Of a stretch of DNA of 32,000 nucleotides, positions 220 to 21,957 are shown piece after piece (positions within the stretch are counted from its first letter, which is position 1; every line of letters begins with the position of its first letter). Both the position numbers and the translations under genes were made by a program. This DNA is from Acaryochloris marina S15 (GTDB lineage: Bacteria; Cyanobacteriota; Cyanobacteriia; Thermosynechococcales; Thermosynechococcaceae): contig NZ_CP064923.1 of the NCBI RefSeq assembly GCF_018336915.1, positions 2,820,001 through 2,852,000 of the forward strand, written 5' to 3'. A model generated the notes under the pieces. It worked only from the letters and a program-made list of their open reading frames with translations, searched no databases and was not told the DNA's origin.

Positions 220-669
220 CTAGCTCAGAAAGGCATCAAAAAGGTTGAGAGTTCGCAGGCGAAGGGTAGCGGCTAGGGCATCATACTGAATTTTGATTCG
301 TAGCATGGAACGAACCCGTGCTCGCAGCTCTAGGCTATTGATGGGTTTAGAGATAAAATCGTCTGCTCCAGCTTCTAATGAACGGGCCAAATCTGCCTTG
401 GAGGTGAGGGCCGTAACAATGATGATGGGAATATGCTTCCAGTTGGGGTTGGCTTTGATCTGGCGACAGGCGTCGATGCCATCCATTTGAGGCATCATGA
501 CGTCGAGTAGAATAACGTCGGGCTGCAGGGAATCAATCTGCTGAATGGCCGCTGGGCCGCTGGGAGCATAGGTCAGTCGGTATCCTTCCCGGATGAGTAA
601 CCCCTCGATCACGTCAAAGATCCGTTCTTCATCATCAATCACGAGGATGGAATGTTGTTTGCTATCCAT
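220..669 (-). CDS. single-domain response regulator (CheY-like receiver)
   Basis: 149-aa ORF with receiver motifs in the translation: acidic pocket ILVIDDEE, phospho-acceptor Asp in VILLDVMMPQMDG, conserved T in IIVTAL and K in FISKP. No output domain. Starts 19 nt after the stop of the upstream hybrid kinase on the same strand. Confidence 0.9.
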   Translation of the reverse strand: MDSKQHSILVIDDEERIFDVIEGLLIREGYRLTYAPSGPAAIQQIDSLQPDVILLDVMMPQMDGIDACRQIKANPNWKHIPIIIVTALTSKADLARSLEAGADDFISKPINSLELRARVRSMLRIKIQYDALAATLRLRTLNLFDAFLS

Positions 670-688
670 GGGGATTTGTTTAGCGATG

Positions 689-2356
689 CTAGATTTGCAG
701 ATGTTTGGTGATCATTTTGGTTAATTGTTCCATCTTCAGGGGTTTAGAGAGAGAGTCACTAAAACCGGCGGCGAGGAACCGTTCCTTATCCTCGGGCATG
801 AGTAATGAAGTCAGGGCAATGATTGGGGTGTAGGGTAGATGACTGCGAATCTGACGGGTTGCTTCTAAGCCATCGACTTGGGGTAAACGAATATCCATAA
901 AGATCAGATCTGGGGTTTGGCGGGTGGCGAGGTCGATGGCCGATTGACCATTGGTTGCGATCGCAACTCGGTATCCCTGTTCTTCAAGGTAATCCGTCAG
1001 CAGTAGGACAATGGATTCTCGATCTTCCGCTAGCAAAATCAACGGGGCAGCGATAGTCCTGGGGCGAGAAGGGGGAACAGATGTTGGTTCTTCTCCATCA
1101 ACAGGAGAGCAAGAGAAGGGTAAGGTGATAGTAAAGGTACTGCCTGCACCAACTTCGCTATAGACCTGAACCATACCGCCGTGGAGTTTGACTAATCTCT
1201 GCACTAGGGTTAAGCCTAAACCTGTCCCTCCATAGAGTCGTGTCCTAGAACTATCGAGCTGTACGAAGGGTTCAAATACTTGAGAGAGTTCTGCGGTAGC
1301 AATACCAATTCCCGTATCTGTCACACTCACTTGAATCGTTTCCGCATCCTGCATCTGCGCCCTTACGGATACTTCCCCCCCCTGGGGTGTGAATTTAATG
1401 GCATTGCGGATCAAGTTCAGGAAGACTTGCTGCAACCGCAGTTCATCTCCTTTCACTTCCGCTAAATCTGCTGGGATAGAGTGGCTCAGATTGATCTGTT
1501 GATCTTGGGCTTGATGTTGGACCATCGCTAGACAGCTTTCGATCAGGACGCCAATGGGAACCCGACTGCACTGTAGCTCCAGATTGCCCGATTCAATTTT
1601 GGAGAGGTCAATTAAGTCGTTGAGCTGGGCTAACAGATTTTCACCACTCTCTTCAATGGTACGGACAGACTTCATCTGTTTGGGGTTGAGAGCACCATAG
1701 ACCTCCTCCCGCAGTACCTCTGCTAGTCCGATAATTGCTGTCAATGGGGTGCGCAGTTCATGGCTCATGGTGGCCAGAAACTCATCCTTCATCTGGGCGG
1801 CCCGTTCTAGATCTTCGTTAGCGAGCCCTAACTTTTCACTTAACTGCTGATACTGGACATTGACTAACTGCTGGCGTTGATAGAGCTGGTAATTGTCGAT
1901 TGCGATCGCAGCTCGTTCTGCTAATACTTCAGCGAGCTGCACATCTTCATCTGTACAGCGATGGGGCTGTCGATAAAAAGAACAGACTGTGCCTAAGACT
2001 GTGCCCATTGGGGTTTTGAGGGGAATACCTAAATAGGCTGCATATCCCTCAGGCATGTGACCCATCGGCTCTAGGGCTACGTCTTCTACCATCAGCGTGG
2101 TTCCCCGTTCCAAGATGCAATTGGTGATGGATCCATGTAAGTTCCAAACGGTTTCAGCGTCATCCATCTCTACGCTACTGGCGAGGATGCGATACTGTTT
2201 GTCTTGGCAGAGGGTGACGATGGACCAGTCCGTGTCAATGAGTTGGCTGATGCCCGAGACAACGGTGGTGAGATAGTCATTTAGATCGCTCTGGCGATAA
2301 CTCAGAGAAGTGAGAACTTCCAGAAGATGGAGCATGCGGCTGGATTCTTGCGTCAT
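689..2356 (-). CDS. soluble hybrid sensor histidine kinase (GAF - HisKA - HATPase_c - receiver)
   Basis: 555-aa ORF. N-terminal GAF-like region, then the H-box MSHELRTPLTAIIG. N box NLIRNAIKFT, G1 DTGIGI and G2 GGTGLGLTL follow. C-terminal receiver runs LILLAEDRE ... LIFMDIRLPQVDG ... LSKP. I saw no hydrophobic membrane segment. Its ATG (2356-2354) overlaps the TGA (2355-2353) of the upstream STAND gene as ATGA. Confidence 0.9.
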   Translation of the reverse strand: MTQESSRMLHLLEVLTSLSYRQSDLNDYLTTVVSGISQLIDTDWSIVTLCQDKQYRILASSVEMDDAETVWNLHGSITNCILERGTTLMVEDVALEPMGHMPEGYAAYLGIPLKTPMGTVLGTVCSFYRQPHRCTDEDVQLAEVLAERAAIAIDNYQLYQRQQLVNVQYQQLSEKLGLANEDLERAAQMKDEFLATMSHELRTPLTAIIGLAEVLREEVYGALNPKQMKSVRTIEESGENLLAQLNDLIDLSKIESGNLELQCSRVPIGVLIESCLAMVQHQAQDQQINLSHSIPADLAEVKGDELRLQQVFLNLIRNAIKFTPQGGEVSVRAQMQDAETIQVSVTDTGIGIATAELSQVFEPFVQLDSSRTRLYGGTGLGLTLVQRLVKLHGGMVQVYSEVGAGSTFTITLPFSCSPVDGEEPTSVPPSRPRTIAAPLILLAEDRESIVLLLTDYLEEQGYRVAIATNGQSAIDLATRQTPDLIFMDIRLPQVDGLEATRQIRSHLPYTPIIALTSLLMPEDKERFLAAGFSDSLSKPLKMEQLTKMITKHLQI

Positions 2357-5300
2357 GACTCAATAGCTCCCAAGGTTTGCAGCATCTGGCGGCGCGATGG
2401 TGTGAGTCCGCAAGCCCCTGTAATATCCATACCTTCGTAGGGACGCTCTAACGGCATTTGGCCGAGCTGCTGACCGGATTCCACAGCCCACAGGCACAAG
2501 GCACCATCCTGTCCTCCGCTGATTAAGCGCTGACCATTAGGGCTGAAGGCCACGGACCAGACAGAGTGAGTATGCCCCGTTAGAACCTTAAGACATTTCC
2601 CAGTCTGGATATCCCATAATCGAACGGTGTTATCAGCACTACCACTGGCGATATATTGTCCATCTGGACTGATCTGCACGGTTAATACGAGGCTGTCATG
2701 GCCTTTGAGAGTTTGGCACTCTTCTCCCGTAGAGAGATCCCAGAGTCGAATGGTTTGATCTTCACTGGCAGAGGCGAGAGTATCTGCATGGGCGCTGACG
2801 GACCACACTGCGCCCATATGTCCAGTCAAAGTGTGGTGACAGTCGCCTGTGCGAACGTCCCATAGTTTGATGGTTTGATCGGCACTGCCGCTGATTAAGG
2901 TATGGCCAGAGAAGGCCACAGATAACACCCAACTGTCGTGACCGGTGAAGGTTCTGAGGCTATGGTGATTGACTCCATCCCAGAAGCGAATTTGGTGGTC
3001 GGCACCACCGCTAGCGAGAATTTGGCCATCGGGGCTAAAGGCAACTGTCCATACTTTGCCCTCGTGACGAGTGGTCATCGTAAACTGCCGCCCGGTTGTA
3101 GGTTCCCACAGCTGGACTGAGCCATCTTCACTGCCGCTAGCGAGAATTTGGCCATCGGGGCTAAAGGTGATGCGGCGGGCAGAGGGTTGCAGATGGCGCT
3201 GCCTACAGTGCTGGTGGTCCACATCCCACAGCCTGATCACGTGATCGGTGCTGCCGCTGGCAAGGGTTTGACCATCAGGACTAAAGGCTACAGACCAGAC
3301 CGCATTCGTATACCCCTCCAGAGTGCAAATGCGATGTACAAGGCTCTTGTCGTTGGGTTGAGCTGCAAACTCCCAGACCCCCAACTTTTGCTTATCACAG
3401 GCTAAAAACTGCTGACCATTGGAGCTAAAGGCTACAGACCAGATTTGACTGTCGTATCCGGTCTGAGACTGAATCAGTGCTCCGGTAGAGACCTGCCAAA
3501 ACTTGAGATGTTGGCGATCGCCTGCCCCCAAAATTTGCCCATCGATACTAAAGGCTACCGACCAAATCGACGTTAAATTCTCAATGACGTGAAGGCAGTC
3601 TCGGGTATCTACCTGCCAGAGACGAATGGTTTGGGCATCACTGCTAGCTAAAAATTGACCATCCTGACTAAAGGCAATGCAGGTAATCGGAAGGGTATGT
3701 CCCAGCAGGGTTGTCAGTAATCCCATTGAAGGATGCCAGAGTCGAAGGGTCTGATCGGCACTGCCACTGGCAATCAGGTTGCCGTCAGGATGATAGGCAA
3801 GGGTGGTAACGCCATCGGTATGTCCGGTAAGAGTATGAATACAGTCGCCAGTTGTTACATCCCAGAGGCGCAGGGTGCAGTCGTTGCTGCCACTCGCGAG
3901 AATTTGGCCATCGGGGCTAAAGGCGATAGACCAAATCCGATCCTGATGTCCGGAGAGGATATGTTGCCCTTCCCCCTGTTCTAGATTCCACAGCAGAATA
4001 GTCTGATCAAAACTGCCGCTAGCGAGGGTCTGACCATCGGGGCTAAAGGCAACGGTCCAGACGGCTTGGGAATGAGCCTGGTAGGCAAATAATAGCTTGC
4101 CGTCCTTGACTTGCCAGACTCGGGGAATACCATCGGCATGGGCTGTTGCCACCCATTGACCGTTGGGGCTAAGGGTGGCGTCGTAGATATCACCAAAGGT
4201 CTGGGTGAACACACTTTTTGTAACGTCTGCTGCCCTAAGGTTCACCTGATGGAGATTGCTGCCCTGAAGATAGGCTTGCCAAACGGTCAAGCCAGAAAAG
4301 TCATAGCCTGTCACATCGATATTTAAGTACACCAGCAAATTAAGAAGATTGCCAGCACCATAACTAGGCTGGGACGAGAGGTGCGACAGCATCTGTTTGA
4401 GATGGACTTCGAGCCGACCAGGGCTGCCCAGACTCGCTAATAATCGGTCGGCGATGGGGGCCAGAATTAAGCGAATTTGACCATCCCGGAGATAGTCTGG
4501 GCTGTCTGCTTTGATCAGGGCATGGGAATAAAATAGAGAAGTCTCTGGTAGGGGCAGGTTGAGAAGCTCTGCACTGACGGTATCAATAAAGCGATCGCAA
4601 ACATACTCCATAATCACGGGCTGTAGGGTCAGCTGAAATACAGTGCTGTCCCGTTCCAGCAGAGAGCGTCTGTCAATGGACTCGATGGCTTCCAGAAGAT
4701 GGGTTGAGGGGGTGAGGATGTCGGACTGCAAGGTTTTTAGAGAGATGGGGGCGCGTGCGATCGCAAGCCAATACAGCACCTGCTGTTCTAGGGATGACAG
4801 CCGCGCAAACTGTTGATCTAGCAGTAAGCGGATTTCACTAAAAGCAATTCGCTCTTGGTCTAGAAACCCTTGGATATCCCCCGCAAAGAGATCCTGGATG
4901 GCAGTCGCGACAATTTTTAAGGCCAGGGGATTACCCTGATAGGTTTCAATCAGCTGACTAGTGGCTGAGGTGAGATGGGTAAAGCCTTTTTGCTGGAGAA
5001 TTTCCTGACCTGATGATGCATCTAAGCCCTGTAAATGGTAAGAACGAACGGGCAAGGCTTCTCCTTCGAAGGCTGCAATTCCTTGGGGTTTTTCACGACT
5101 GGTCAGGATCAAGCAGCTCTGATGGTCGGTGCTAGCAATTTGGTGTAGTAGCTCCCTATACCCCTTCCGGCTAGATTGATATCGTCCAGCAGGACGACCT
5201 CGCTCTAGGATGGACTCCACATTATCGAGAACTAAAAGACATCGAGATTGGCGCAGGTAGTCTGTCAGTTGAGAAATTTGGCCATTGAGGTGCTGTGGCA

Positions 5301-5883
5301 GTTCGGCCTCCCTTTGTCCTGAAAAGACTTGCAGGTAGTCCAGTAACAACACCTCAATGGGGGGAGCGTTCCGCAGAGACCGCCAGATCAGGGTGGTAAA
5401 TTGATTTTGAACTTGCTGGGCGAGTCTGATGGAGAGGGCCGTCTTTCCCATGCCGCCCATTCCCAGCAGGGTCACTAATCGGCAGCGATCTGCAACTATC
5501 CAGTGGCTGACGGTCTTTAACGCCTGATGACGACCATAAAATGGGGTGGCGTCTGGTGCCCCACCCCAATCTTGTTGTGTGGGTGCGGCCTGTAGGGGCG
5601 AGGGTTGCTCACAATCGACCTGAGCCAGGTCTAGGTTCAAGGCATGAAAAAGAACTTGAAGGGTTGTCAAGTCTACGGTTTCCTGGCGCAGAATTTTGCG
5701 GACGGTGGTGGGGTGGAGTCCCTTAGGATCAATAATTTGGATCTGCTGGGTAATGCGGGCGGCATTATGTTTCACACCCGTTTGGGCTTCTAGAGCGAGT
5801 AACCGTTGCTGTAGTTTCTTCATCCCGAGGGGCGTCAGCGAGAATCCGCGCTGACGCTGGGGTGCAGAAGATTGATGATCCAT
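2353..5883 (-). CDS. STAND NTPase: XRE-like HTH + NB-ARC (AP-ATPase) + 14 WD40 repeats
   Basis: 1,176-aa ORF. An HTH-like segment sits at aa ~12-90 (LHPTTVRKILRQETVDLTTLQVLFHALNLDL). Walker A is GMGGMGKTAL (nt 5440-5463) and Walker B is CLLVLDNVES. GNPLAL matches the GLPL motif of NB-ARC/Apaf-1-type ATPases. A helical linker with a pentapeptide-like stretch (GYDFSGLTVWQAYLQGSNLHQVNLRAADV) follows. I then counted 14 repeats of the form AFSPDGQxLASGSxDxTxRLWD (nt ~2434-4191), enough for two 7-bladed propellers. Confidence 0.9.
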   Translation of the reverse strand: MDHQSSAPQRQRGFSLTPLGMKKLQQRLLALEAQTGVKHNAARITQQIQIIDPKGLHPTTVRKILRQETVDLTTLQVLFHALNLDLAQVDCEQPSPLQAAPTQQDWGGAPDATPFYGRHQALKTVSHWIVADRCRLVTLLGMGGMGKTALSIRLAQQVQNQFTTLIWRSLRNAPPIEVLLLDYLQVFSGQREAELPQHLNGQISQLTDYLRQSRCLLVLDNVESILERGRPAGRYQSSRKGYRELLHQIASTDHQSCLILTSREKPQGIAAFEGEALPVRSYHLQGLDASSGQEILQQKGFTHLTSATSQLIETYQGNPLALKIVATAIQDLFAGDIQGFLDQERIAFSEIRLLLDQQFARLSSLEQQVLYWLAIARAPISLKTLQSDILTPSTHLLEAIESIDRRSLLERDSTVFQLTLQPVIMEYVCDRFIDTVSAELLNLPLPETSLFYSHALIKADSPDYLRDGQIRLILAPIADRLLASLGSPGRLEVHLKQMLSHLSSQPSYGAGNLLNLLVYLNIDVTGYDFSGLTVWQAYLQGSNLHQVNLRAADVTKSVFTQTFGDIYDATLSPNGQWVATAHADGIPRVWQVKDGKLLFAYQAHSQAVWTVAFSPDGQTLASGSFDQTILLWNLEQGEGQHILSGHQDRIWSIAFSPDGQILASGSNDCTLRLWDVTTGDCIHTLTGHTDGVTTLAYHPDGNLIASGSADQTLRLWHPSMGLLTTLLGHTLPITCIAFSQDGQFLASSDAQTIRLWQVDTRDCLHVIENLTSIWSVAFSIDGQILGAGDRQHLKFWQVSTGALIQSQTGYDSQIWSVAFSSNGQQFLACDKQKLGVWEFAAQPNDKSLVHRICTLEGYTNAVWSVAFSPDGQTLASGSTDHVIRLWDVDHQHCRQRHLQPSARRITFSPDGQILASGSEDGSVQLWEPTTGRQFTMTTRHEGKVWTVAFSPDGQILASGGADHQIRFWDGVNHHSLRTFTGHDSWVLSVAFSGHTLISGSADQTIKLWDVRTGDCHHTLTGHMGAVWSVSAHADTLASASEDQTIRLWDLSTGEECQTLKGHDSLVLTVQISPDGQYIASGSADNTVRLWDIQTGKCLKVLTGHTHSVWSVAFSPNGQRLISGGQDGALCLWAVESGQQLGQMPLERPYEGMDITGACGLTPSRRQMLQTLGAIES

Positions 5884-6248
5884 ACTGACTAGGGTACTGC
5901 TCTGGGGGCGTTACAGATACTGCTGGTGGAAAACAGTTTCTAGATTATCCATTGCTATGGGTGGGGACACAGAGTAGTTAGTTAAGTCCTTGTAAAAAAT
6001 GTTTTAGGGCTTTATGGCTGTTTGATTCATCACAAAAGGCAATACAAGGTTGTAGATTTTCTAGAATTCACGGCAGTGATGGGCAAATGAATATGGATGA
6101 TGCTCGAAATAAACTCATGTCTACCCTGAAAATAAGCTACGCCAATGCAATAGAGCAATCGAGGGTTATTCTATCCGTATTCGATCGCGTGTTAAAGTGC
6201 GAACCGGGGATGGGTGCTCCCTTAGGTGTTATCTAAAAGAACGCTGCT

Positions 6249-7490: not shown

Positions 7491-7870
7491 CAAAATTGCC
7501 ACTAGCGGTTACTTCCACATTAGTAAGATAAGTTGCTAGTGCTTCACCCCAATGATCCTAGACGTCTGATGAAGATAAAATCTTTGATCCTTAGGTACTT
7601 CTCTGTCAGTTAACTCTTCGTAATCACTGTGGTGAAGTACTAGACTTAAAAGGATTATTTTTTGATGAATTATATTTCAGAAAGAATTGGCATCACTTTT
7701 GAGAAAATTTTTATGCCAATTTCTTGCAACATATTTAACTAATTAAAAGCTGTTTTATGGTGTTTTAGTTCTTCCTGGAACATTGCTTTTAGTTCTCATT
7801 TTTAAACATGGTTAACTAATTTATTCCTCAGCTGCTACTTATCTTTTGAAAATAGTCTGGGTCTTGAACC

Positions 7871-7886
7871 TGACTCAATTGAGTCA
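7871..7886. promoter_or_regulatory. perfect 16-bp palindrome TGACTCAATTGAGTCA, candidate operator or 5'-UTR hairpin
   Basis: The sequence is self-complementary over all 16 nt. It lies 4 nt upstream of a GGAG (7891-7894) and 16 nt upstream of the ATG at 7903 of the RTX-like gene, at the end of a ~400-bp AT-rich intergenic region. Confidence 0.3.
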
Positions 7887-7902
7887 CTATGGAGATCTAA
7901 AA

Positions 7903-9144
7903 ATGTCCTTATTATTACCTGGTAGTACCGACCCTTTATTTATTAGTGAATTTGAAGGGGCTGAGTTTTTTGGTAGTCCACAAGATGGCGGTGGAGCTTT
8001 TGCTGTTGGGCAGGAAGATACTACCAATCTTTTTGTGTTTGATGACACTAATGATGTTGCTGTAGGTGGTGATGAAGTTGATATTTTTATGGCCAATGGC
8101 GGCGACGACAACATCATGGGAGCTGAAGGGACTGATTTCTTGTTTGGAGGATTTGGCGATGATATTGTCCGGGGCGGAGAAGGAGATGATGTGGTTGTTG
8201 GTAATGAAGGCTCAGATATCTTAATCAGCGGCAGTGGAAGCGATATCTATGAGTATTTTGCAGATCAGATCCTGCCTGGTGATCTAGATATCATCTTGGA
8301 TTTTGAGTCGGGCGAAGACGCTGTGGTGATTGTTGGTAGTACAGATATTAACTACGATAACTCGACTGGTTTTCTAACAGTGGATGGAACGACAGCAGCT
8401 GTTCTAGATGCAGGGTTAGAACTAGAGGTGTTGACGCGGGCTAATTCTTCCGTCGTCTTTGATGCGGGTGCAGATGTTTCTGGCTTTGGTGCCGCTACAG
8501 TTCCCGAAGAGACAGACGAGCAGCTAAGGGCAGACGCATTGGATAGTGAAGGGGAATATGAGGTGCTATCCATTGTGGATGCATCGCCTAGTCTGGCACC
8601 TGGGAGCACCGTTCCCCTATTTATCAGTAATTTTGAAGGGGCACAATTCTTTGATGCCCCTCAAGATGGGGGTGGCGTTTTTGCGGTGGGTCAAGAGGAC
8701 ACTACTAATATTTTCGTGTTTGGAGATAGTAACGATGTTGCTGCGGGTGGCGATGAAGTCGATATCTTTATGGCCAATGGTGGCGATGACAACATCATGG
8801 GAGCTGAAGGAACTGATTTCTTGTTTGGGGGCATCGGTGACGATATTGTCCGGGGCGGTGAGGGTGATGATGTGGTTGTTGGTAACGAAGGGTCTGATGT
8901 GTTGATTGGAGGGGCAGGGGCTGATATTTTTGAGTTTTTTGCTGACCAATTTGGCATCGGTGATCTCGATGTGGTGCTTGATTTTGAATCGGGTAGCGAT
9001 GCCCTGGTCATTGTCGGTAGTATAGATGCCAGCTACGATAGCGCAACCGGTTTTGTGGCTGTGGATGGCACTGAAGTCGCCACATTGGATGCTGGTCTAA
9101 ACCTGGATGTGCTGGTTCGAGGTAACTCTGCTGTCATTTCTTAA
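7903..9144 (+). CDS. acidic calcium-binding RTX (hemolysin-type nonapeptide) repeat protein, internally duplicated
   Basis: The track ORF starts at a TTG (7846). The in-frame ATG at 7903 is preceded by GGAG and is the more likely start. Each half carries six consecutive GxxGxDxUx nonapeptides: ANGGDDNIM GAEGTDFLF GGFGDDIVR GGEGDDVVV GNEGSDILI SGSGSDIYE. The protein is very D/E/G-rich, has no Cys and no N-terminal signal peptide. That profile fits a type I secretion substrate. Confidence 0.8.
   Translation: MSLLLPGSTDPLFISEFEGAEFFGSPQDGGGAFAVGQEDTTNLFVFDDTNDVAVGGDEVDIFMANGGDDNIMGAEGTDFLFGGFGDDIVRGGEGDDVVVGNEGSDILISGSGSDIYEYFADQILPGDLDIILDFESGEDAVVIVGSTDINYDNSTGFLTVDGTTAAVLDAGLELEVLTRANSSVVFDAGADVSGFGAATVPEETDEQLRADALDSEGEYEVLSIVDASPSLAPGSTVPLFISNFEGAQFFDAPQDGGGVFAVGQEDTTNIFVFGDSNDVAAGGDEVDIFMANGGDDNIMGAEGTDFLFGGIGDDIVRGGEGDDVVVGNEGSDVLIGGAGADIFEFFADQFGIGDLDVVLDFESGSDALVIVGSIDASYDSATGFVAVDGTEVATLDAGLNLDVLVRGNSAVIS
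7915..9141 (+). repeat. tandem intragenic duplication, period 681 bp (227 codons)
   Basis: Copy 1 core is 7915-8460 and copy 2 is 8596-9141, an exact in-frame offset of 681 nt. A ~135-nt acidic linker (8461-8595) is present only between the copies. My hand alignment of 8071-8220 against 8752-8901 gave about 19 mismatches in 150 nt. Confidence 0.9.
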
Positions 9145-9734: not shown

Positions 9735-12700
9735 TTGGGGGAGTCTACAGTAGCATTTGAGAATGCCAGTCAGAAGAGGTCAGTTGATATGACTACTGAA
9801 GTTCGTTCAGACGGGCATCAGAGTTTGCTCAGATCTGATTTACCGAAGCAGGAGCGGCTGCTAGCAGGGGTCGCTGAGGCCACAAGGCAACTATTAGCGA
9901 TCGCAGATTTTGATACGGCAGTTAATGGAGCCCTGGAAGCGATCGCAATCGCGACTGAAATAGATCGCATCTTTATCTATCGGAACCACTCAGAGCTGGG
10001 GACCCACAGAGAATTTGCGTCTTGTCCTTATGAATGGACAGTAACAGGGGTGGTTAAAGCGAGTGAGCTCCTGAATCAATTTCCGCTGTTTTACGACGAA
10101 ATTGATGGGTACAGCGATTGGCTGTCTGAATTGAAGGCAGGCCAACCTGTACAAAAGCTCGCACGGGAAATGTCAGAGGTAGGACAGGACAAACAGATAC
10201 AGGAACAAGCACTGTCAGTACTCACTGTTCCAATTTTTGTAGAGGGTGACTATTGGGGAAACTTTGGCTTTGATGACTGCACCACCGAACGGATGTGGAG
10301 CAAGGTAGAAATTGCAGTACTGGAGACGGCAGCAGCGAGCTTTGCAGGGGCACTAGAGCGGCAGAATAACCTAGCAGAACTAGAGCGGCAAGATGCTTTG
10401 CTCAAAAGCGTAAACGCGGCAACACAGCGCTTAGTTACAACGAGCGAGCTAAAGCAGGCGATTCCAGAGGCGTTACGAATTTTGGGTGAGGGGGCGCATC
10501 AGGATCGAGTATATGTATTTGAGAATGTATTTCCCCAAGGGCCAGATCAGGTGTTTTGGGATATTCCCTACGAATGGGTAAATACAGGAATTCCAACTTG
10601 TGCAGTAACGGCCACTGAATGGCCCATTGCGATGGCTTCTTTCCCGCCAAGTATAAACAATTCTTTACGCTCTGGACAAGTAACTCAGCTTTTAACCAGC
10701 GATTTGCAAGGTAAAGCTCAGCACATCAATGAAGAAGGCCAAACGTTGTCCTTGCTTGCCGTGCCGATCACAGTTGCTAGCCAATGGTGGGGGGTATTGG
10801 GATTTGACGACTGCACAACAGAGCGTGAGTGGAGTGATGCAGAAATAGCCGTTTTAGAAACTGCAGCTGCTTGTATAGGCAGTGCCATTGAGCGTGACAA
10901 CGCCCGCAAGGAGAAAGAGACTGCTGCCCAAGCTCGTGTTGCTGAGTTGGCAGAACGAGATCGCATCTTGGAAGCAACGGCTGCCGCTGCCAATGTCATG
11001 CTTACCGAGGACGATTTCGACCAAGCCGTTAAAGCCGCGCTTCAAATCGTAGGGGAAGGTTTAGAGGTCGATCGCATTAACTTAGGACAATATTTCGAAG
11101 CAACTTCACCACAAGATGTTAGCTACCACGACATGAGCGACTATGAATGGACCTCGGCCCAAACTATACTCCAATCGGAGCATCCTGAGTTCTCTAGAAT
11201 TAGCGATGCAGGCATAGAGTTTATGCTGGAGACGTTGCATAGGGGTGAAGTCTTTGGTGGCATTGTAGAAGAACTCCCTGAGCCCTTTCGTAGCAGTCAA
11301 CTTGCTCTAGGCGTACAGTCTACCTACGCAGTCCCCATTCGAGTTGATGGTAGGTATTGGGGCCTGATTGGTTTTGACGATTGCCATCATCTAACACGGC
11401 GGAGTGAGGCAGAACTTGAGGCTCTAATAACGCTGGCGAATTGTATTGGTAATGCCATTGAGCGTGAGCGAGAACGCCAGGAAAAAGAAGCGACTGCTGC
11501 AGCCCGACTGACGGAGTTAGCTGAACGTGATCGCATCTTGGAAACCACGGCTACTGCCGCCAATGTCATGCTGACGGACGAAGATTTTAATACTGCTGTC
11601 CATACTGCTTTGGCAATCGTAGGCAACGGTTTAGAACTGGATCGAGTTTTGCTCGGAAAGCATGTGGATACCGTATTGGCTCAAGAACCAAACTACATCC
11701 AGTTCTTATATGAATGGGTGGCTGAAGGAACAAACCTGCAGACAGAACATCCTGAATTGGTAAAAATTAGCAATGAAGGACTGGAGTTGATCTATGAAGC
11801 ATTAAGCCGAGGCAAAATTTTTGGAGGAATTGTTGATGAGCTGCCAGATCCGTTTCGCACGGGTCAGAAAGAGTTAGGAGTCCAATCGACTTACTCTATA
11901 CCGATTATGGTGGAGGGTGATTATTGGGGCATTATTGCGTTAGACGATTGCCGTCATCTGACACGACGCAGCGAAGCTGAACTTGAAGCATTGAAAACAT
12001 TAGCGAATTGTATTGGCAATGCGATTGAGCGTGATCATACTCGCAAGGAAAGAGAGGCTGCTTCTCAGGCTCGTGGGGCTGAGTTGGAGACGCATAATCT
12101 GGAACTGGCAAGCCGCGATCGCATATTGGAAGCAACAGCAGCAGCCGCGAATGTTTTACTAACCGATGACGACTTTGAAGGGGCTTTTAATCGAGCCTTG
12201 CAAATTATTGGGGAAGCAGTGGGCACCGATCGGGTGGGACTTGCTCAACATCTTGCGTATATCACCGAGGCTGAACCAGGACATTGGCGACTAATTCATG
12301 AATGGCATGCCCCTGGGATTACCCCTGTCGCCCAAATCTTTTATCCAGAGCCCATGCAGGGAAGCTATGCCGGGGCTGAGCTGCTTTATGAAATGCATCA
12401 GCGGGGCGAAGGCTTTAGCTTAACCACAGCTCAGATGCTTGAACCCTTTCGCAGCAATATGGCAACGGTAGGTGTCCAAACTTTGCATGCAGTTCCCATC
12501 CTCTTGCATGATCAGTATTGGGGCACAGTGGTATTTGGCGACTGTCGCCAGCAACGGCAGAGAAGCTTAGCAGAGTTAGCAGCTTTGCAAACGGTTGCAG
12601 ACTGCATTGGCAATGCCATTGATCGCGATCGCAACCGCAAAGAAAGAGAAGCGGCAACCCAAGCCCGTGCAGCAGAGTTGAAAAAGAATAACGAAATTCT

Positions 12701-15700
12701 TTCCCTGCGAGATCGCTGGCTCAGTACAACGGCTGCAGCGACAGAAAAACTACTCTCAGAGAATGATCTAAAAAGTGCGGTCAAACCAGCTTTACAAGAA
12801 ATTGGTGAAAGTATAGGTGTTGACCGTATTGGCATTATGTATGTTTGTGAGCAGGACAGTCAGAAAGTTTTAGGGTTTTTTGAAGAGTGGATTCATCCTA
12901 GTCAGCCCGTTCAAAGTGAGAATGCAGAACTGTCAGCCATTCCTTGCCATCTAATTGGTGACCAGCACTTTAAAACTCTACTGGATGGACAATGGTACGG
13001 TGGCGATATTGAAGATTTTCCTGAGCCTTTCCGCAGCAGTCAAAAGGAGATTGGTGTCCAGTCTACCTATTCAGTCCCCATCTTTATTGATAGTCAGTTT
13101 TGGGGACTAGTTGGTATTGACCACTGCCGAAAGAAGAAGCTGTTAACTAAAACAGAGATTGCTGTTTTTCAAACTATTGCAAGTTGTTTTGCCAGTGCTA
13201 TTCAACGGGACCAGATTCGCAAAGCTCGTGAAGCTGCCGAACGCACTGCCTTGATTGAGGGTGAACGTGCAGCCCGTGCGGCTGAGCTAGAAGCTGCAAA
13301 CCAAGTGCTAACAACTCGCGATCGCTGGTTACAGACCACAGCCGCCGCCACCAATCAGCTTTTGTCTACTGCCGATATTTCGAGGGGGGTCAACACGGCC
13401 CTCCAAACCCTGGGTACTAATTTAGAGAGCGATCGCTTAGGCGTTATGCGCCATGTTCCTGATGCCACCGAACTTGGTTCTTTCCAAATCCTTTATGAAT
13501 GGGATGCAGCGGGAACTACTGCCCAAATCGATCATCTCGAACTTTATCAAATGCCTGCCAGTGACTTTGCCGACTGGACGCGCCATTTGATGATGGGTCA
13601 ACCCGTCGGTGGTCCTATTGAAGAGCAATCCGACCCTTTTCGCACCAAAATGCGGAGCCTAGGCACTCTATCCGCCTATGCTGTCCCTATTTTTATTGAG
13701 ACGGAGTTCTGGGGCGTGATGTTTATGGACTATTGTCGTAGTTCACGGCAGCTTGCTCCTGCTGAGTTAGCTGTATTTAATACTGCCGCTACCTGTATTG
13801 GTGGTGCCATTCATCGAGAACAGATGAGATGTGATCGCGAACAGGCCGAACGCGATGCTCTCTTACAGCAAGAACGGCAACAGGCAGCTCAGAGAAGGGC
13901 CACAACCCTAGAAACCCATAACCAACAGCTTCAACAGCGAGATCGGCTTCTCAATAGTGTCAATGCTGCTGCCCAGTCCTTGGTTGCTAATGAAGACCTG
14001 GATACAGCGCTGCCCACGATGCTGCAAATCTTGGGCGAGGGGACCGGCCAGTGTCGGGCCTATATTCTGCGGAATTCCCAGGACGAGCAAACTGGCAAAT
14101 TGCTATTCAACCTGATGCTGGAGTGGGATGCACCCCATATCCCTACCAAAATGGAGGTTGGGGCTCGATTCCCGGTTCCCATTCATCACTTCCCTGAGCA
14201 TCTAACCGCTCCCCTCAAAGCAGGACGGGCAACTCAATTCCTCGCTAGTGAGTTGGACAGTATCAGCCCAGCAGAACGACAGCCCGGACAGGCCCTTTCC
14301 CTTGTAGGGGTTCCCATTTGGGTTGATGGTGAATGGTGGGGATTATTAGGACTCGATGATTGTGTTGAAGAGCGGATCTGGAGCGATGCAGAAATTGCAG
14401 TCTTAGAAACCGCAGCAACTGCAGTGGGGGGTGCTTTGGAGCGTGATCGCAGCCGTCAAGATCGTGAAGCCGCAGAGCGGACTGCGTTGATTGAGCGAGA
14501 ACGGGCGGCCCGTGCAGATGAATTGGAAGCTACGAACCAAGTTCTCCAGACCCGTGAACGCTGGTTAGAAACGACAACTACTGCTGCCAATGTGCTTCTG
14601 TCTGGTACTGATGTATCTGTGAGTGTCAACGCAGCTTTACAGACCATCGGTGAGAATCTGGAATGCGATCGCGTTTTTGTTATGCAGGGGATGGCAAAAC
14701 CAAACGGCTCTGCTGACGAACTTGGCTTTGCTTGCTTAACCCATGAGTGGTGCTCAGAGGGGCTGGAACACCACATTAATATCCCTCAAATTGCAAAAGT
14801 TCCGGTTGAGAGATTTAAGGAGACCCTGGAGCAGATAGGCGATAGGCAATGGATTGGTGGCATCGTTGATGAATTAACAGAGCCGATGCGTAGTTACCAA
14901 CAGTCTCTGGGTGTTAAATCTATGTACTCTGTTCCAGTGTTTGTGAACGGCAAGGCATGGGGGTTGGTCGGTATAAATCACTGCCGGGAGGCTAAACGGA
15001 TCAGCCAATCAGAACTTGCAGTGTTTCAAACAGCTGCAAACTGTATTGGCAGAGCCATTTATCAAGAGATGGCCCGACGTGATCAGGCAGCTCAGGAACG
15101 GGCAAAGCTATTGGGGGCAGTTGCTGAAGCAGCGAATCTATTGCTGCGTTCAGCAGACTATACAAAAGTGTTGCCGGAGGTGGTGCGGCTGTTGGGTGAG
15201 GCGGTGGAGTGCGATCGCTGTGGTATCGGCCAGGATGTAATGGACCCAAACTCTCATCAATCAGTTGCCAGCATCAAATTAGCATGGGAATGGAGACATC
15301 CTGCTAGAGCATACCATTGGGACCACCATTGCACTTACACAGACAAAATTTTTTACTGGGAACATACCCCTTTTATTTACGAAGCTTTAAGAATGGGGCA
15401 AGTTGTTAATACCTGCATCGCTGATTTACCTGAACCTGATCGAAGTTCCTTATCAACCCTTGGCCTTTTAGCACAGTGCTTTGTCCCCATTGCTGTAGAA
15501 CAAAAACTTTGGGGCTTTTTTAACTTTGATAACTATGGTGAATCTCGGCTTTATGATGAGGCAGATATTGCGATTTTGCGGGTGGCGGCAGAAAGTATTG
15601 CAGCGGCAATTGCACGGCAGTCTCAAGATGAAGCATTGCGCAGATCAGAACAAGCTATTCTTGCGGAAAAAGAAAAAGCAGCAAGAGAGCGGGCAGCAGA

Positions 15701-17468
15701 GCTGGCAAAGACAAATGAGGCGATTGGTCGAGCCCTTGTCGCTCTCACCGAAACACCTGAGCTAGGTGAATTTTTAGGGCAAATCTTAACTCAAATGATC
15801 AATCAAGTTGAGGCCTGCAAAGCTCATCTATTTTTGTATGACGAAGAGTCAGATACATTGAATCAATATATGGCTGTTCAGGATGGGCAGGTTTATCAAG
15901 GCGCGGCTCCAACCGATCCAGACATGTTTCGCCGTCCTGTTCCGTCCAAGATTTCCAACGCTTGGGAGATGATAGTCAACTCTCCTAAACCCTTTACGCT
16001 AGATGAGCGCCACCCTGAAGCTGCAGAAGCCTATTGGCCGGAATCTATTCCCTGGCATCAGGCGGAAGGACATATTTCCTCTACCTGCGCCTGCATGAAG
16101 GTGGGAGGAAAACCCATTGGTTTTATCGGTTTTGCCTTCCGCCACGTTGCCGTCCTCAGCAACGAACAACTAGAGTTTATTCAATCCCTGACCAACCAAG
16201 CGACCCTCTCCATTCACCTGACTCGTCTGGCGGAAAAAGCCAAACAAGCTGCTATTGCACAGGAACAAGAACATGCTGCTCGAGAACGAGCGGTTGAGTT
16301 AGCTAAGACCAATGAGGCTATTTCAAAAACGCTAGATGTACTGACAACAACTCCAGAACTCAACGAATTTCTAGGTCAAATTTTGACCCAAATTATTGAG
16401 CAAATTGGGGCAGATGATACCCACCTATTTTTGTATGATGCCGAGACTCATACGTTGCGATCGCAACTTGCAGTCCAAAGCGATACCGTTTACTTAGGAA
16501 ATGCCCCTGGTGACCCTGAACTCTTCTACACAGATATTCCTGCTGATATCACAGCGGCTTGGCAAATTCTTATCAAATCCGGCAAGCCCTTTACTTTAGA
16601 CGATCAAAATCCTGAAGCAGCAGAATTTCTCTGGCCGACAACCCAAAAGTGGCACGATGCCCGAGGGCATCAATCCGCCACCTGTGCCTGCATGAAAATT
16701 GGCAACCAACCCATAGGATTTATTGGATTTGCCTTTTGCGATCGCACCATCCTCAGCACTGAACAGCTTGAATTTGTCCAAGCCCTCACCAACCAAGCCA
16801 CCCTCGCCATTCACCTCACCCGCCTTGCTGAACAGGCTCGGACCAATGCCCTCACCGATGAGCGTAATCGCCTCGCCCGCGAAATTCACGATACCCTAGC
16901 CCAGGCCTTCACGGGCATCTCTCTCCAGCTCGAAGCTGCCAAAAATATCTTGGTCCAACAGCCCGAAACCGCAAAGAGCTACCTAGACCAGGCCCGTGAC
17001 TTAACCCGTCAGGGCCTATCTGAAGCTCGTCGTTCCGTTCATGCCCTGCGCTCCCAAGCCTTGGAGACCGAATCCCTAGTCAGGGCTCTCCAGAAAAGTC
17101 TCACCCAGATGACCCTCAATACATCCCTACAGACTGAATTCCAACTTCAAGGGACTCCTACTCTTCTTGAGGAGGGGCTACAGCTCAATCTCCTTCGTAT
17201 TGGGCAAGAGGCCATTACCAACGCCCTCCGCCATGCCCAGGCCCAAACCCTCACTGTTACTCTGACCTTTACAGACCAACAGGTTAGTCTTGGTATCGTG
17301 GATGATGGTGTGGGCTTTGAACCCCAAGATGCGGCTGATATAACGGGATTTGGACTAGTGGGCATTCATGAACGAACGGCCCGTTACAAAGGCCAAGTCC
17401 AGATTATGAGCCAGCCGGGTAAAGGAACCTCTATTGAAGTGACTCTGCCCACCCAGCTTAAGGGGTAA
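9735..17468 (+). CDS. giant soluble multi-GAF sensor histidine kinase (12 GAF domains + HisKA_3 + HATPase_c)
   Basis: 2,577-aa ORF. The track start is a TTG at 9735, with AGGAG 3 nt upstream. An alternative ATG lies at 9789. Ten GAF modules end in [YFWL]WG-x-h-x-h-D-[DHN]-[CY]; the WG positions are near nt 10251, 10783, 11353, 11919, 12513, 13095, 13704, 14331, 14955 and 15507. Two further GAF modules belong to a different subfamily, with KPIGFIGFAF near 16113 and 16710. Modules are joined by Ala/Glu/Arg-rich helical linkers. The C-terminus has the HisKA_3 H-box NRLAREIHDTLAQ (His codon 16887-16889) and HATPase_c motifs (ITNALRHA, DDGVGF, GFGLVGIHER). I saw no transmembrane segment and no PAS domain. 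Confidence 0.9.
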   Translation: MGESTVAFENASQKRSVDMTTEVRSDGHQSLLRSDLPKQERLLAGVAEATRQLLAIADFDTAVNGALEAIAIATEIDRIFIYRNHSELGTHREFASCPYEWTVTGVVKASELLNQFPLFYDEIDGYSDWLSELKAGQPVQKLAREMSEVGQDKQIQEQALSVLTVPIFVEGDYWGNFGFDDCTTERMWSKVEIAVLETAAASFAGALERQNNLAELERQDALLKSVNAATQRLVTTSELKQAIPEALRILGEGAHQDRVYVFENVFPQGPDQVFWDIPYEWVNTGIPTCAVTATEWPIAMASFPPSINNSLRSGQVTQLLTSDLQGKAQHINEEGQTLSLLAVPITVASQWWGVLGFDDCTTEREWSDAEIAVLETAAACIGSAIERDNARKEKETAAQARVAELAERDRILEATAAAANVMLTEDDFDQAVKAALQIVGEGLEVDRINLGQYFEATSPQDVSYHDMSDYEWTSAQTILQSEHPEFSRISDAGIEFMLETLHRGEVFGGIVEELPEPFRSSQLALGVQSTYAVPIRVDGRYWGLIGFDDCHHLTRRSEAELEALITLANCIGNAIERERERQEKEATAAARLTELAERDRILETTATAANVMLTDEDFNTAVHTALAIVGNGLELDRVLLGKHVDTVLAQEPNYIQFLYEWVAEGTNLQTEHPELVKISNEGLELIYEALSRGKIFGGIVDELPDPFRTGQKELGVQSTYSIPIMVEGDYWGIIALDDCRHLTRRSEAELEALKTLANCIGNAIERDHTRKEREAASQARGAELETHNLELASRDRILEATAAAANVLLTDDDFEGAFNRALQIIGEAVGTDRVGLAQHLAYITEAEPGHWRLIHEWHAPGITPVAQIFYPEPMQGSYAGAELLYEMHQRGEGFSLTTAQMLEPFRSNMATVGVQTLHAVPILLHDQYWGTVVFGDCRQQRQRSLAELAALQTVADCIGNAIDRDRNRKEREAATQARAAELKKNNEILSLRDRWLSTTAAATEKLLSENDLKSAVKPALQEIGESIGVDRIGIMYVCEQDSQKVLGFFEEWIHPSQPVQSENAELSAIPCHLIGDQHFKTLLDGQWYGGDIEDFPEPFRSSQKEIGVQSTYSVPIFIDSQFWGLVGIDHCRKKKLLTKTEIAVFQTIASCFASAIQRDQIRKAREAAERTALIEGERAARAAELEAANQVLTTRDRWLQTTAAATNQLLSTADISRGVNTALQTLGTNLESDRLGVMRHVPDATELGSFQILYEWDAAGTTAQIDHLELYQMPASDFADWTRHLMMGQPVGGPIEEQSDPFRTKMRSLGTLSAYAVPIFIETEFWGVMFMDYCRSSRQLAPAELAVFNTAATCIGGAIHREQMRCDREQAERDALLQQERQQAAQRRATTLETHNQQLQQRDRLLNSVNAAAQSLVANEDLDTALPTMLQILGEGTGQCRAYILRNSQDEQTGKLLFNLMLEWDAPHIPTKMEVGARFPVPIHHFPEHLTAPLKAGRATQFLASELDSISPAERQPGQALSLVGVPIWVDGEWWGLLGLDDCVEERIWSDAEIAVLETAATAVGGALERDRSRQDREAAERTALIERERAARADELEATNQVLQTRERWLETTTTAANVLLSGTDVSVSVNAALQTIGENLECDRVFVMQGMAKPNGSADELGFACLTHEWCSEGLEHHINIPQIAKVPVERFKETLEQIGDRQWIGGIVDELTEPMRSYQQSLGVKSMYSVPVFVNGKAWGLVGINHCREAKRISQSELAVFQTAANCIGRAIYQEMARRDQAAQERAKLLGAVAEAANLLLRSADYTKVLPEVVRLLGEAVECDRCGIGQDVMDPNSHQSVASIKLAWEWRHPARAYHWDHHCTYTDKIFYWEHTPFIYEALRMGQVVNTCIADLPEPDRSSLSTLGLLAQCFVPIAVEQKLWGFFNFDNYGESRLYDEADIAILRVAAESIAAAIARQSQDEALRRSEQAILAEKEKAARERAAELAKTNEAIGRALVALTETPELGEFLGQILTQMINQVEACKAHLFLYDEESDTLNQYMAVQDGQVYQGAAPTDPDMFRRPVPSKISNAWEMIVNSPKPFTLDERHPEAAEAYWPESIPWHQAEGHISSTCACMKVGGKPIGFIGFAFRHVAVLSNEQLEFIQSLTNQATLSIHLTRLAEKAKQAAIAQEQEHAARERAVELAKTNEAISKTLDVLTTTPELNEFLGQILTQIIEQIGADDTHLFLYDAETHTLRSQLAVQSDTVYLGNAPGDPELFYTDIPADITAAWQILIKSGKPFTLDDQNPEAAEFLWPTTQKWHDARGHQSATCACMKIGNQPIGFIGFAFCDRTILSTEQLEFVQALTNQATLAIHLTRLAEQARTNALTDERNRLAREIHDTLAQAFTGISLQLEAAKNILVQQPETAKSYLDQARDLTRQGLSEARRSVHALRSQALETESLVRALQKSLTQMTLNTSLQTEFQLQGTPTLLEEGLQLNLLRIGQEAITNALRHAQAQTLTVTLTFTDQQVSLGIVDDGVGFEPQDAADITGFGLVGIHERTARYKGQVQIMSQPGKGTSIEVTLPTQLKG

Positions 17469-18031: not shown

Positions 18032-18658
18032 ATGTCTCCACTCATCCGTCTCCTTGTCGTTGAAGATCACCCTGTTGTCCGCCATGGCATTATTGCTATC
18101 CTCAGTCAGGCCGAGGATATGGATGTGATTGCCGAAGCCGAAAACGGTTTAGAAGCCATTGACCAATACCAGAAGCATCAGCCTGATATCACCCTTATGG
18201 ATCTGCGGATGCCCCATCTCGAAGGGGTCGAAGCGATTGCCCGCATTCGAGCCAAAACCTCCAAAGCCCAGATCATCATTCTCACAACCTACGATACGGA
18301 CGAAGACATCTATCGGGGACTTCAGGCCGGAGCACGGGGTTATATTCTCAAAGACACCACAGCCACAGAACTGATCCATGCTATCCGCACTGTTCATGGT
18401 GGCAAACGCTACATTCCTTCAGAAGTCGCACTCAAACTAGCTGACCGGATTGACGATAGCGATCTCACGGATCGGGAACTCGAAGTTTTGCAACTCCTGA
18501 GCAAGGGGAACAGCAACCAAGAAATTGCCGCTGCCCTAACGATTTCCGAAGGGACCGTCAAGTTTCATATCAACAACATTCTTTCCAAATTGGGGGTCAA
18601 AGATCGCACTCAAGCGGTGATTGTAGCCTTAAAAAAAGGATTAGCCCGACTCGACTAG
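18032..18658 (+). CDS. NarL/FixJ-family response regulator (receiver + LuxR-type HTH)
   Basis: 208-aa ORF. Receiver motifs are LLVVEDHP, ITLMDLRMPHLEG, IIILTTY and YILKD. The C-terminal LuxR HTH reads LTDRELEVLQLLSKGNSNQEIAAALTISEGTVKFHINNILSKLGV. This family normally partners HisKA_3 kinases such as the one ending at 17468. Confidence 0.92.
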   Translation: MSPLIRLLVVEDHPVVRHGIIAILSQAEDMDVIAEAENGLEAIDQYQKHQPDITLMDLRMPHLEGVEAIARIRAKTSKAQIIILTTYDTDEDIYRGLQAGARGYILKDTTATELIHAIRTVHGGKRYIPSEVALKLADRIDDSDLTDRELEVLQLLSKGNSNQEIAAALTISEGTVKFHINNILSKLGVKDRTQAVIVALKKGLARLD

Positions 18659-21589: not shown

Positions 21590-21694
21590 GTTGAGAATGA
21601 GTGCAAGATCGTAATAGTACCTGCAGGAATATAAAAGATCTTTATCCGGTTAACTTTGTATTCTAAAGTCATTGGCATCACACCCAGAGGTCAA

Positions 21695-21734
21695 CTTCAC
21701 TAGCTGATGAACGACGATTCATTGGCTAGTGAAG
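21695..21734 (+). other. 17-bp stem / 6-nt loop RNA hairpin, better formed on the + strand
   Basis: CTTCACTAGC (21695-21704) pairs perfectly with GCTAGTGAAG (21725-21734). The inner TGATGAA (21705-21711) pairs with TTCATTG (21718-21724) through two G-U pairs and five Watson-Crick pairs. The loop is CGACGA. On the minus strand the two G-U pairs become A-C mismatches. The hairpin starts 105 nt after the AraC stop and has no U-tail. Confidence 0.3.
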
Positions 21735-21910
21735 CCCAATATACAAAGTGCTTCGGGTGTCATCTCATCAATGGGTGATAGCTCCGGATACTTGCCCCTA
21801 ATGTTTCTGTTAATTTCTAAAACATAAAAGCTATCGAGAATTTTATGGAGGTGATCAACAGCAATACAATTAGTAAAAAAACAGCACTTTATTTATTGTT
21901 TATGGCTAAG

Positions 21911-21957
21911 TATAGAGTGACGTTTTCGCTAGTGTTAGAAATTATAGGGTGACGTTT
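21911..21957 (+). promoter_or_regulatory. 15-bp direct repeat TATAG(A/G)GTGACGTTT x2, 32-bp centre-to-centre
   Basis: Copy 1 is 21911-21925 and copy 2 is 21943-21957, matching at 14 of 15 positions. Both are preceded by AA. They lie in the AT-rich ORF-poor spacer downstream of the AraC pair. Direct repeats are the usual site geometry for AraC-family proteins, but function here is unproven. Confidence 0.25.

Follow-up and report, generated by a model that had tools for sequence, protein, structure and literature searches.

A 32,000-nucleotide stretch of the Acaryochloris marina S15 genome (NCBI RefSeq assembly GCF_018336915.1, contig NZ_CP064923.1, positions 2,820,001 to 2,852,000; hereafter the window) carries three adjacent genes on its minus strand that encode, in order of reading, a STAND NTPase with a predicted DNA-binding N-terminus, a soluble hybrid histidine kinase and a single-domain response regulator (receiver). 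We propose, with a probability of about 0.5, that they make up one operon that serves as a cytoplasmic signalling module specific to Acaryochloris-type cyanobacteria, in which a STAND transcription regulator is coupled to the kinase and the receiver. The observations that carry this proposal are the architecture of the proteins, their intact catalytic motifs, the conserved linkage and overlap of the genes, and purifying selection.

Direct reading of the junctions bore out the initial annotation of this DNA, which had given an ATGA overlap at 2353-2356, a 19-nt gap and operon-like packing. The STAND gene ends in GAG TCA TGA, which overlaps the kinase start ATG ACG CAA, and a Shine–Dalgarno-like GGGAG lies 10–11 nt upstream. 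Between kinase and receiver, the 19-nt spacing recurs in three orthologous loci (L006, L010 and L013) and becomes −8 in L011 and 42 in L012. A terminator scan found no terminator-like site at either gene junction; its two minus-strand matches were weak 5-bp stems within coding sequence. From the packing, the overlap and the terminator-free junctions, we infer that the three genes are co-transcribed as one operon.

An Apaf-1-like NB-ARC core followed by 14 WD40 blades, as initially annotated for the STAND protein, was recovered by profile searches, motifs, the structural model and Foldseek. The Pfam NB-ARC match (aa 121–329) scored 45.2 bits against a cutoff of 23.5, placing the protein in the AP-ATPase/NB-ARC clade, and its NACHT score fell exactly at the cutoff of 26.7. 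Walker A (GMGGMGKT, aa 141), Walker B (LLVLDNVE, aa 216) and the GxP motif (GNPLAL, aa 317) are all invariant among orthologues. In the full-length AlphaFold model (mean predicted local distance difference test score, pLDDT, of 75), the HTH (13–81) is followed by the nucleotide-binding domain (NBD, 119–283), HD1 (289–342), a winged helix (351–419), HD2 (422–519), a short β-solenoid (about 527–560) and continuous propeller strands (566–1142). The order NBD, HD1, winged-helix domain (WHD) and HD2 ahead of the repeats was confirmed by the AlphaFold secondary structure, an Apaf-1 alignment and profile matches to plant CNL proteins; the profile of the orthologues' nucleotide-binding oligomerisation module (NOD) matched the plant CC-NLRs ZAR1, Sr35 and MLA13, and the NCBIfam AfsR model gave a weak NOD match (E 0.008). 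The linker scored E 0.0056 against Pfam Pentapeptide, appeared in the model as isolated short strands and, over profile residues 521–555, matched designed pentapeptide-repeat proteins (E about 2e-4).

In the C-terminal half, Pfam WD40 matched with E 1.5e-136 in 11 stretches, and WD40/β-propeller matches extended over approximately aa 560–1143. Motif spacing gave 14 blades, that is, 13 xLW anchors 40–49 aa apart plus a first blade ending in IPRVW. The top Foldseek match of the model was a cyanobacterial double propeller (2ymu, 38% identity), followed by full-length Apaf-1 and apoptosome chains aligned over about 1150–1190 columns (E about 1e-36). The MHD/LHD histidine holds ADP in the off state of plant and animal NLRs; here, aa 421–423 (4615–4623, minus strand) read LQP, with Gln in place of His. 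The core clade has LQP throughout, 70 of the 78 paralogues described below have QQP or LQP, and LHP occurs only in L093. The His-to-Gln exchange is a family-wide variant and does not disqualify the protein from the Pfam family.

The initial annotation had placed an XRE-like HTH where an enzymatic effector might stand, and this assignment held, although the N-terminus matched by its own sequence only HTH_26 and HTH_3, at E 0.046–0.094 and under the Pfam cutoffs. HTH_26 was matched by 13 of 30 homologous N-termini (best E 4.5e-4), and the N-terminal family profile had HipB as its top solved-structure match (E 0.008). AlphaFold modelled the region as a four-helix bundle (pLDDT about 90 for aa 11–95), and 40 or more of the top 50 Foldseek matches were XRE-type HTH proteins, among them VanU, ClgR, HipB, C-controller proteins, 434 Cro, TP901-1 CI and DdrO, with target TM-scores of 0.45–0.70 and E-values that reach only 0.2–1.5 because the domain is so small. 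We accepted the N-terminus as an XRE-type HTH fold on these lines of evidence taken together; it is the only soft part of the observation, and DNA binding is predicted.

The kinase retains the motifs SHELRTP (with His199), NLIRNAIKF, DTGIGI and GTGLGL, together with Asp488 and Lys538 of its receiver (REC) domain, and no membrane-spanning hydrophobic segment was present in its sequence. It fell below the cutoff of every named kinase in NCBIfam, including TorS and BarA, the highest being HrmK (317.6 bits against 725). No HPt domain was detected in the kinase, the receiver or the conserved 120-aa protein encoded downstream, although one encoded elsewhere in the genome is possible. The phosphorelay invoked by the initial annotation was therefore not demonstrated in its canonical multi-step His-Asp-His-Asp form, the hybrid kinase being without HPt.

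The receiver has all the canonical residues (Asp12/13, Asp56, Thr86 and Lys108), no output domain, and a 25-aa C-terminal tail, RIK[IL]QYDAL.AT.RLRTLNLF[DN]AF, that is invariant in the core clade. The tail is nearly invariant in Microcoleus and Oxynema orthologues of 74% overall identity and is also present in L093 and L096. Receivers of this family are widespread: full-length relatives, 70–77% identical and with the same tail, occur in Symploca, Microcoleus, Oxynema, Microseira, Kamptonema and others, and in the loci sampled, orthologues with the tail always follow a hybrid kinase. A scan of metagenome contigs with the receiver alignment returned generic REC domains only (at most 46% identity) and no orthologues, back-translated patterns being too generic, and a tblastn search of plasmids returned two kinase-fused REC domains only, without the tail.

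Proteins built like this STAND protein are abundant. At least 3040 HTH-plus-NOD relatives were found at E ≤ 1e-10, the named ones nearly all cyanobacterial and several labelled "XRE-family HTH" by JGI. In the protein-level search with HTH plus NOD, all 120 matches listed were shorter than 1000 aa, and the orthologues of 1169–1194 aa were not among them; a search of cluster representatives with the N-terminal module returned proteins of 1176–1466 aa. At 50% identity, the HTH-type N-terminal module is spread over at least 93 clusters, many of which contain proteins of approximately 1180–1240 aa. Because the HTH/NB-ARC/WD40 architecture is so common, the STAND protein belongs to a known, functionally uncharacterised kind, and what sets the locus apart is its linkage.

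How far that linkage is conserved bears on an alternative that we regard as possible rather than probable: one of many STAND paralogues may have landed upstream of an already existing two-component operon in an ancestor of the Acaryochloris clade, and the genes may since have been co-inherited, perhaps even co-transcribed, while working in unrelated pathways. We followed the kinase through orthologues of 99, 86, 84, 80, 74, 65, 62 and 49% identity. At the 86, 80 (Acaryochloris sp. CCMEE 5410), 74 and 62% loci, a STAND gene encoding 1169–1194 aa ends 4 nt past the kinase start and a 149-aa receiver comes next; the overlap at these four reads ATGA three times and GTGA once. Identity to the window declines in parallel for the STAND protein (88/79/73/65%), the kinase (86/80/74/62%) and the receiver (97/94/91/89%). 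In each of the six orthologous loci (A. marina MBIC11017, Acaryochloris sp. CCMEE 5410 and four uncultured relatives), the three genes are collinear, and five of the six retain the 4-nt overlap, as ATGA in L006, L010, L012 and L013, as in the window, and as GTGA in L011; L096 has lost it. In a neighbour-joining tree of 86 HTH-plus-NOD sequences, the core STAND clade had 200/200 bootstrap support.

All three genes are under purifying selection. Pairwise ratios of non-synonymous to synonymous divergence (dN/dS) were 0.07–0.14 for the STAND gene, 0.06–0.11 for the kinase and 0.04–0.05 for the receiver, similarly strong constraint that counts against a neutral juxtaposition. Synonymous divergence (dS) exceeded 2 against L011 and L012; it is saturated, so gene order and overlap have outlived complete synonymous turnover, and they have also outlasted rearrangement of the upstream flank, which likewise speaks against mere juxtaposition. 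The flanks upstream of the trio in L011 and L012 at first looked unrelated to that of the window, a reading that we rejected because they share genes with it and are rearranged, not independent; the argument built on them was down-weighted.

A STAND gene is also found next to receiver orthologues in two lineages outside the core clade, where the flanks are unrelated and the gene orders differ, a further point against chance placement. At the 49% kinase locus (L093/L094), where the flanks are unrelated, the order is kinase, receiver, a 185-nt gap and STAND; the HTH-type N-terminus of this STAND protein is 53% identical to that of the window, and the identity over aa 1–560 is 44%. In Microcoleus sp. 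FACHB-831 (L177), one strand carries, in this order, genes for a STAND protein (1221 aa), a PAS protein, a dCache-HAMP-PAS-GAF hybrid kinase and a receiver. In all, a STAND gene accompanies the kinase-receiver pair in the core clade and, outside it, in two of three lineages sampled, in three arrangements; small as this sample is, the recurrence is suggestive of a functional link.

Several observations weigh against the proposed module, and some favour plain juxtaposition. When 185,579 species-representative genomes were scanned with the orthologues' HTH-plus-NOD alignment, 80 loci emerged at 42–85% identity; of these, only the loci of A. marina MBIC11017 (85%) and of one uncultured cyanobacterial metagenome-assembled genome (65%) were orthologues, the next-best locus being 52% identical. 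These two were also the only loci of the 80 with an overlapping hybrid kinase and a receiver; the 78 next-closest loci, all paralogues, had neither a linked kinase nor a receiver with the diagnostic tail, and the three closest relatives under 1000 aa among the matches listed, also paralogues, had neither the kinase nor the receiver as a neighbour. Most members of the STAND family therefore work without the kinase and receiver. Within the core clade, the loci share wider synteny (a giant GAF kinase, AraC, DM13 and pentose-phosphate genes), so that part of the linkage conservation may be plain vertical inheritance. L096, the 65% kinase locus, has the STAND orthologue (its C-terminal 429 aa are 61% identical to those of the window protein) but tolerates between STAND and kinase a DUF3598_N/BFA1_C gene (1544–2389) that abolishes the overlap; Pfam names BFA1 as a biogenesis factor required for ATP synthase 1. 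The orthology of the L093 STAND protein to the core clade is weakly supported (25/200 bootstrap), and the L177 STAND protein was read without its N-terminus. In Oxynema aestuarii, a hybrid kinase and a receiver occur with no STAND gene within 10 kb. Because the pair is found with and without STAND across lineages, the hybrid kinase plus receiver is the older, general unit. The candidate operator described below is only partly conserved, and co-transcription, any contact between the proteins, the direction in which signals flow and the target sites on DNA are inferred from the features above.

The linkage is thus real but narrow: it is a property of one clade and not of the STAND family. For the gene-neighbourhood conservation on which the initial annotation had made its case depend, this means that the trio was kept in all six orthologous loci and was absent from the 78 closest paralogue loci. 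Its translational coupling fared likewise in part: the overlap is present and conserved in orthologues, yet it is dispensable, as the L096 insertion and the kinase-receiver-STAND order of L093 indicate.

Directly upstream of the STAND gene lies a block of approximately 105 nt that is near-identical in the window and in L010, L013 and L006 (four Acaryochloris loci) and partly retained in L011. Farther upstream, the sequence of L013 (A. marina MBIC11017) is unrelated to that of the window, so the block travels with the STAND gene; its position and conservation fit a putative operon promoter. Within it, an imperfect palindrome occurs in the window and in L010, with a counterpart at the same place in L011 (AGACACTG-N13-CAGTCTCT); it is degenerate in L013 and L006 and absent from L012, L014 and L093. 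As its conservation is only partial, we did not count the palindrome as evidence, and the block as a whole is no evidence of autoregulation.

In the proposed module, the STAND protein would be an ATP-dependent transcription regulator with a logic like that of MalT, AfsR and GutR: the C-terminal repeats would bind a cue, the NB-ARC core would exchange nucleotide and oligomerise, and the clustered XRE-type HTH domains would bind DNA. Its gene would have been attached in this lineage to the older kinase-receiver pair. The two halves would complement each other, since the two-component pair has a GAF sensor and no output domain and the STAND protein has a predicted HTH output and no known input. 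Either the receiver in its phosphorylated state, by way of its conserved tail, or the kinase might bind the propellers or the NOD and gate oligomerisation of the STAND protein, making the HTH the transcriptional output of the phosphorelay, possibly with the operon's own conserved upstream block as a target. That the receiver is without an output domain and that the HTH is the sole DNA-binding domain in the trio were counted in favour of the HTH as its output. A narrower form of this mechanism, in which the phosphorylated receiver, by way of its invariant tail, is itself the ligand of the WD40 propellers or the NOD and triggers oligomerisation, with the HTH as output, seems to us unlikely as it stands; if true, it would be the first case of phosphorelay-to-NLR signalling and would give a function to one branch of a large cyanobacterial family.

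Signals might also run the other way, in the direction that the initial annotation had suggested. In this alternative, the propellers would sense a macromolecular cue, the STAND oligomer would control the kinase (as a scaffold or through transcriptional autoregulation of the operon), and the output would pass by His-Asp transfer to a small kinase and an OmpR-type regulator encoded downstream. This reading gains from the position of the STAND gene, first in the operon and translationally coupled to the kinase, which would favour equimolar synthesis, and from the genes that follow the trio, encoding a secreted protein of approximately 120 aa and a small HisKA kinase, joined in some loci by an OmpR-type regulator as a possible DNA-binding output. 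It loses on three counts: the STAND protein already bears a predicted DNA-binding output of its own, the L093 and L177 arrangements are without the downstream small kinase and OmpR genes, and there is no HPt domain for a multi-step relay. We consider it quite unlikely as a whole, and its claim that the propellers sense and the output leaves through His-Asp transfer is no better supported than the reverse, the HTH being the only output domain and the receiver having none.

The initial annotation had also pointed to bacterial conflict and antiphage systems, which for this locus would mean an NLR-like system of the Avs/bNACHT type with the two-component genes as effector or regulator. Such systems share with the STAND protein an NTPase core and a C-terminal sensor; the tripartite architecture here is NLR-like, the closest full-length structural match is Apaf-1, and the family is expanded in filamentous cyanobacteria, such expansions often being conflict-related (PMC7159879, PMC8195603). 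However, no PADLOC model matched the NOD, and the sole PADLOC match, HEAT-ARM_XIII, was driven by the WD40 region (aa 856–1055), with no STAND model involved. The N-terminus is an HTH and not a nuclease, protease, TIR or other enzymatic effector. Inside the STAND gene, dN/dS was 0.08–0.14 in the WD40 region against 0.08–0.12 in the NOD, so the sensor is not diversifying. Inheritance is vertical and collinear, not patchy, and the window annotation contains no defence-island, defence or mobile-element genes. The low WD40 dN/dS, the lack of a PADLOC NOD match and the housekeeping context together make an immune receptor very improbable, and we take the trio to be a module for signalling and transcription in the cytoplasm rather than an antiphage system.

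Each part of the proposed module has known relatives. Apaf-1 has the same NBD-HD1-WHD-HD2 order followed by two WD40 propellers; it differs in having a CARD in place of the XRE HTH and a His where LQP here has Gln, and the identity is 18–20%. Apaf-1 has 15 WD40 blades against the 14 counted here. MalT, AfsR and GutR are likewise single chains that unite a STAND NTPase with a DNA-binding domain and C-terminal repeats, but with LuxR-type (MalT) or SARP (AfsR) DNA-binding folds and with TPR/SUPR repeats instead of WD40. AfsR is controlled by the kinase AfsK and so offers a precedent for kinase-to-STAND transcription factor wiring, although AfsK is a Ser/Thr kinase, unlike the His-Asp system here; to our knowledge, none of MalT, AfsR and GutR is encoded in overlap with a two-component pair. 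Pairs of a hybrid histidine kinase and a single-domain receiver, such as DivJ/PleC-DivK or the branched pathways of CheA-CheY type, also have a HisKA kinase with an attached REC and then a stand-alone REC that acts through protein-protein contacts, whereas the trio has no HPt and its receiver carries a family-specific invariant 25-aa tail.

The nearest relatives of the STAND protein are cyanobacterial HTH/NB-ARC/WD40 proteins with the same architecture and the same linker motif, QDWGEAxDVSxFYGR, annotated as 'NB-ARC domain-containing protein', 'WD40 repeat protein' or 'transcriptional regulator with XRE-family HTH domain'; the 78 non-orthologous loci examined differ from the window in being without an adjacent hybrid kinase or tail-type receiver. 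We know of no cyanobacterial HTH/NB-ARC/WD40 protein that has been functionally characterised. Region 4 of sigma-70 is itself an HTH, and NB-ARC and WD40 are among the accessory domains of cyanobacterial sigma-70 proteins (PMC11119718). STAND proteins have been discussed as transcription regulators and as components of conflict systems, and receiver domains as kinase-independent effectors (PMC7159879, PMC8195603, PMC11564622, PMC11119718, bioRxiv 10.1101/2020.01.06.895854). A full-text literature search, with the relevant comparative-genomics papers, found no description of a STAND/hybrid-kinase/receiver operon, in agreement with the initial annotation, which had known of no system with this wiring. 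The parts are ordinary; their overlapping STAND/two-component coupling is restricted to one lineage, seems not to have been described before and may be recurrent.

HTH/NB-ARC/WD40 proteins number in the thousands in cyanobacteria, and they are mostly treated only in terms of their kinship with switches of apoptosis and immunity. Here, as happens rarely, such a STAND protein has a conserved, tightly coupled genetic partner, namely a soluble kinase and an output-less receiver, and the same operon in A. marina MBIC11017 (within NC_009925.1:6150142-6171821), a culturable strain with a complete genome, provides a testable entry point. It asks whether a phosphorelay can gate an NLR-like oligomeric transcription switch and what the propellers bind. 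A functional link would mean a new input/output logic for STAND and two-component signalling; otherwise, this is an ordinary operon of common parts.

Table 1. Features of the STAND/kinase/receiver locus; positions are those of the window unless a locus is named, and aa numbers refer to the respective protein.
Feature	Position	Strand	Basis
STAND NTPase gene, 1176 aa (HTH, NB-ARC, pentapeptide-like linker, 14 WD40 blades)	2353..5883	(-)	Open reading frame (ORF)
Soluble hybrid histidine kinase gene, 555 aa (GAF-HisKA-HATPase_c-REC)	689..2356	(-)	ORF
Single-domain response regulator (receiver) gene, 149 aa	220..669	(-)	ORF
ATGA overlap of STAND stop codon and kinase start codon	2353..2356	(-)	Read from sequence
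Kinase-receiver spacer, 19 nt (kinase TAG to receiver ATG)	670..688	(-)	Read from sequence
XRE/Cro-type helix-turn-helix (HTH) domain, predicted, STAND aa 13-81	5641..5847	(-)	AlphaFold, Foldseek, family profile
NOD, STAND aa 119-519 (NBD, HD1, winged helix, HD2)	4327..5529	(-)	Pfam, motifs, profile, model
Pentapeptide-repeat-like β-solenoid linker between NOD and first WD40 blade, STAND aa 521-561	4201..4323	(-)	Pfam, profile, model
14 WD40 blades, consistent with two propellers, STAND aa 566-1142	2458..4188	(-)	Pfam, blade count, structural match
Kinase GAF, aa 24-153	1898-2287	(-)	Pfam
Kinase HisKA, aa 189-257	1586-1792	(-)	Pfam
Kinase HATPase_c, aa 303-414	1115-1450	(-)	Pfam
Kinase REC, aa 440-549	710-1039	(-)	Pfam
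Receiver REC, aa 8-120	310-648	(-)	Pfam, REC only
Receiver invariant C-terminal tail, aa 124-149	223-300	(-)	Orthologue alignment
Conserved block of ~105 nt, candidate promoter/5' untranslated region (UTR), including GGATAATCTAGA with -10-like GATAAT	5884..5990	(-)	Near-identity across loci
Imperfect palindrome AGAAACTG-N11-CAGTATCT, weak candidate operator or 5' UTR stem	5915..5941	(-)	Sequence comparison
Conserved downstream block	L006 11379-12954; L010 11398-12942; L011 11423-13233; L013 15899-17475; L096 4986-7837		

The block downstream of the trio runs past position 1 of the window. It encodes the protein of approximately 120 aa, which has a signal-peptide-like N-terminus and a weak DUF4142 match, and a HisKA/HATPase kinase of 240–297 aa without a sensor domain; in L011, L014 and L096 it also contains an OmpR-type regulator.

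The rest of the window holds, among others, genes for lycopene cyclase, an RTX protein, AraC regulators, pentose-phosphate enzymes and a 2577-aa multi-GAF HisKA_3 kinase with a NarL-type regulator; Rfam and tRNA scans of the window gave no matches. The 2577-aa kinase (9735–17468, plus strand) is soluble, combines a HisKA_3/HATPase core with at least seven GAF domains, and is followed by the REC-GerE (NarL-type) regulator at 18032–18658 (plus strand). Close to the STAND operon, L006, L011 and L012 also have a comparable giant GAF kinase, which marks the region as a signalling-gene cluster. Between an AraC-type regulator and a 6-phosphogluconate-dehydrogenase-like gene, a gap of approximately 1.1 kb (21590–22665) is free of Rfam and tRNA matches and of ORFs that reach 120 aa. 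The RTX calcium-binding protein (432 aa; 7846–9144, plus strand) consists of two near-identical halves (...PLFIS.FEGA.FF..PQDGGG.FAVGQEDTTN...), an internal tandem duplication.

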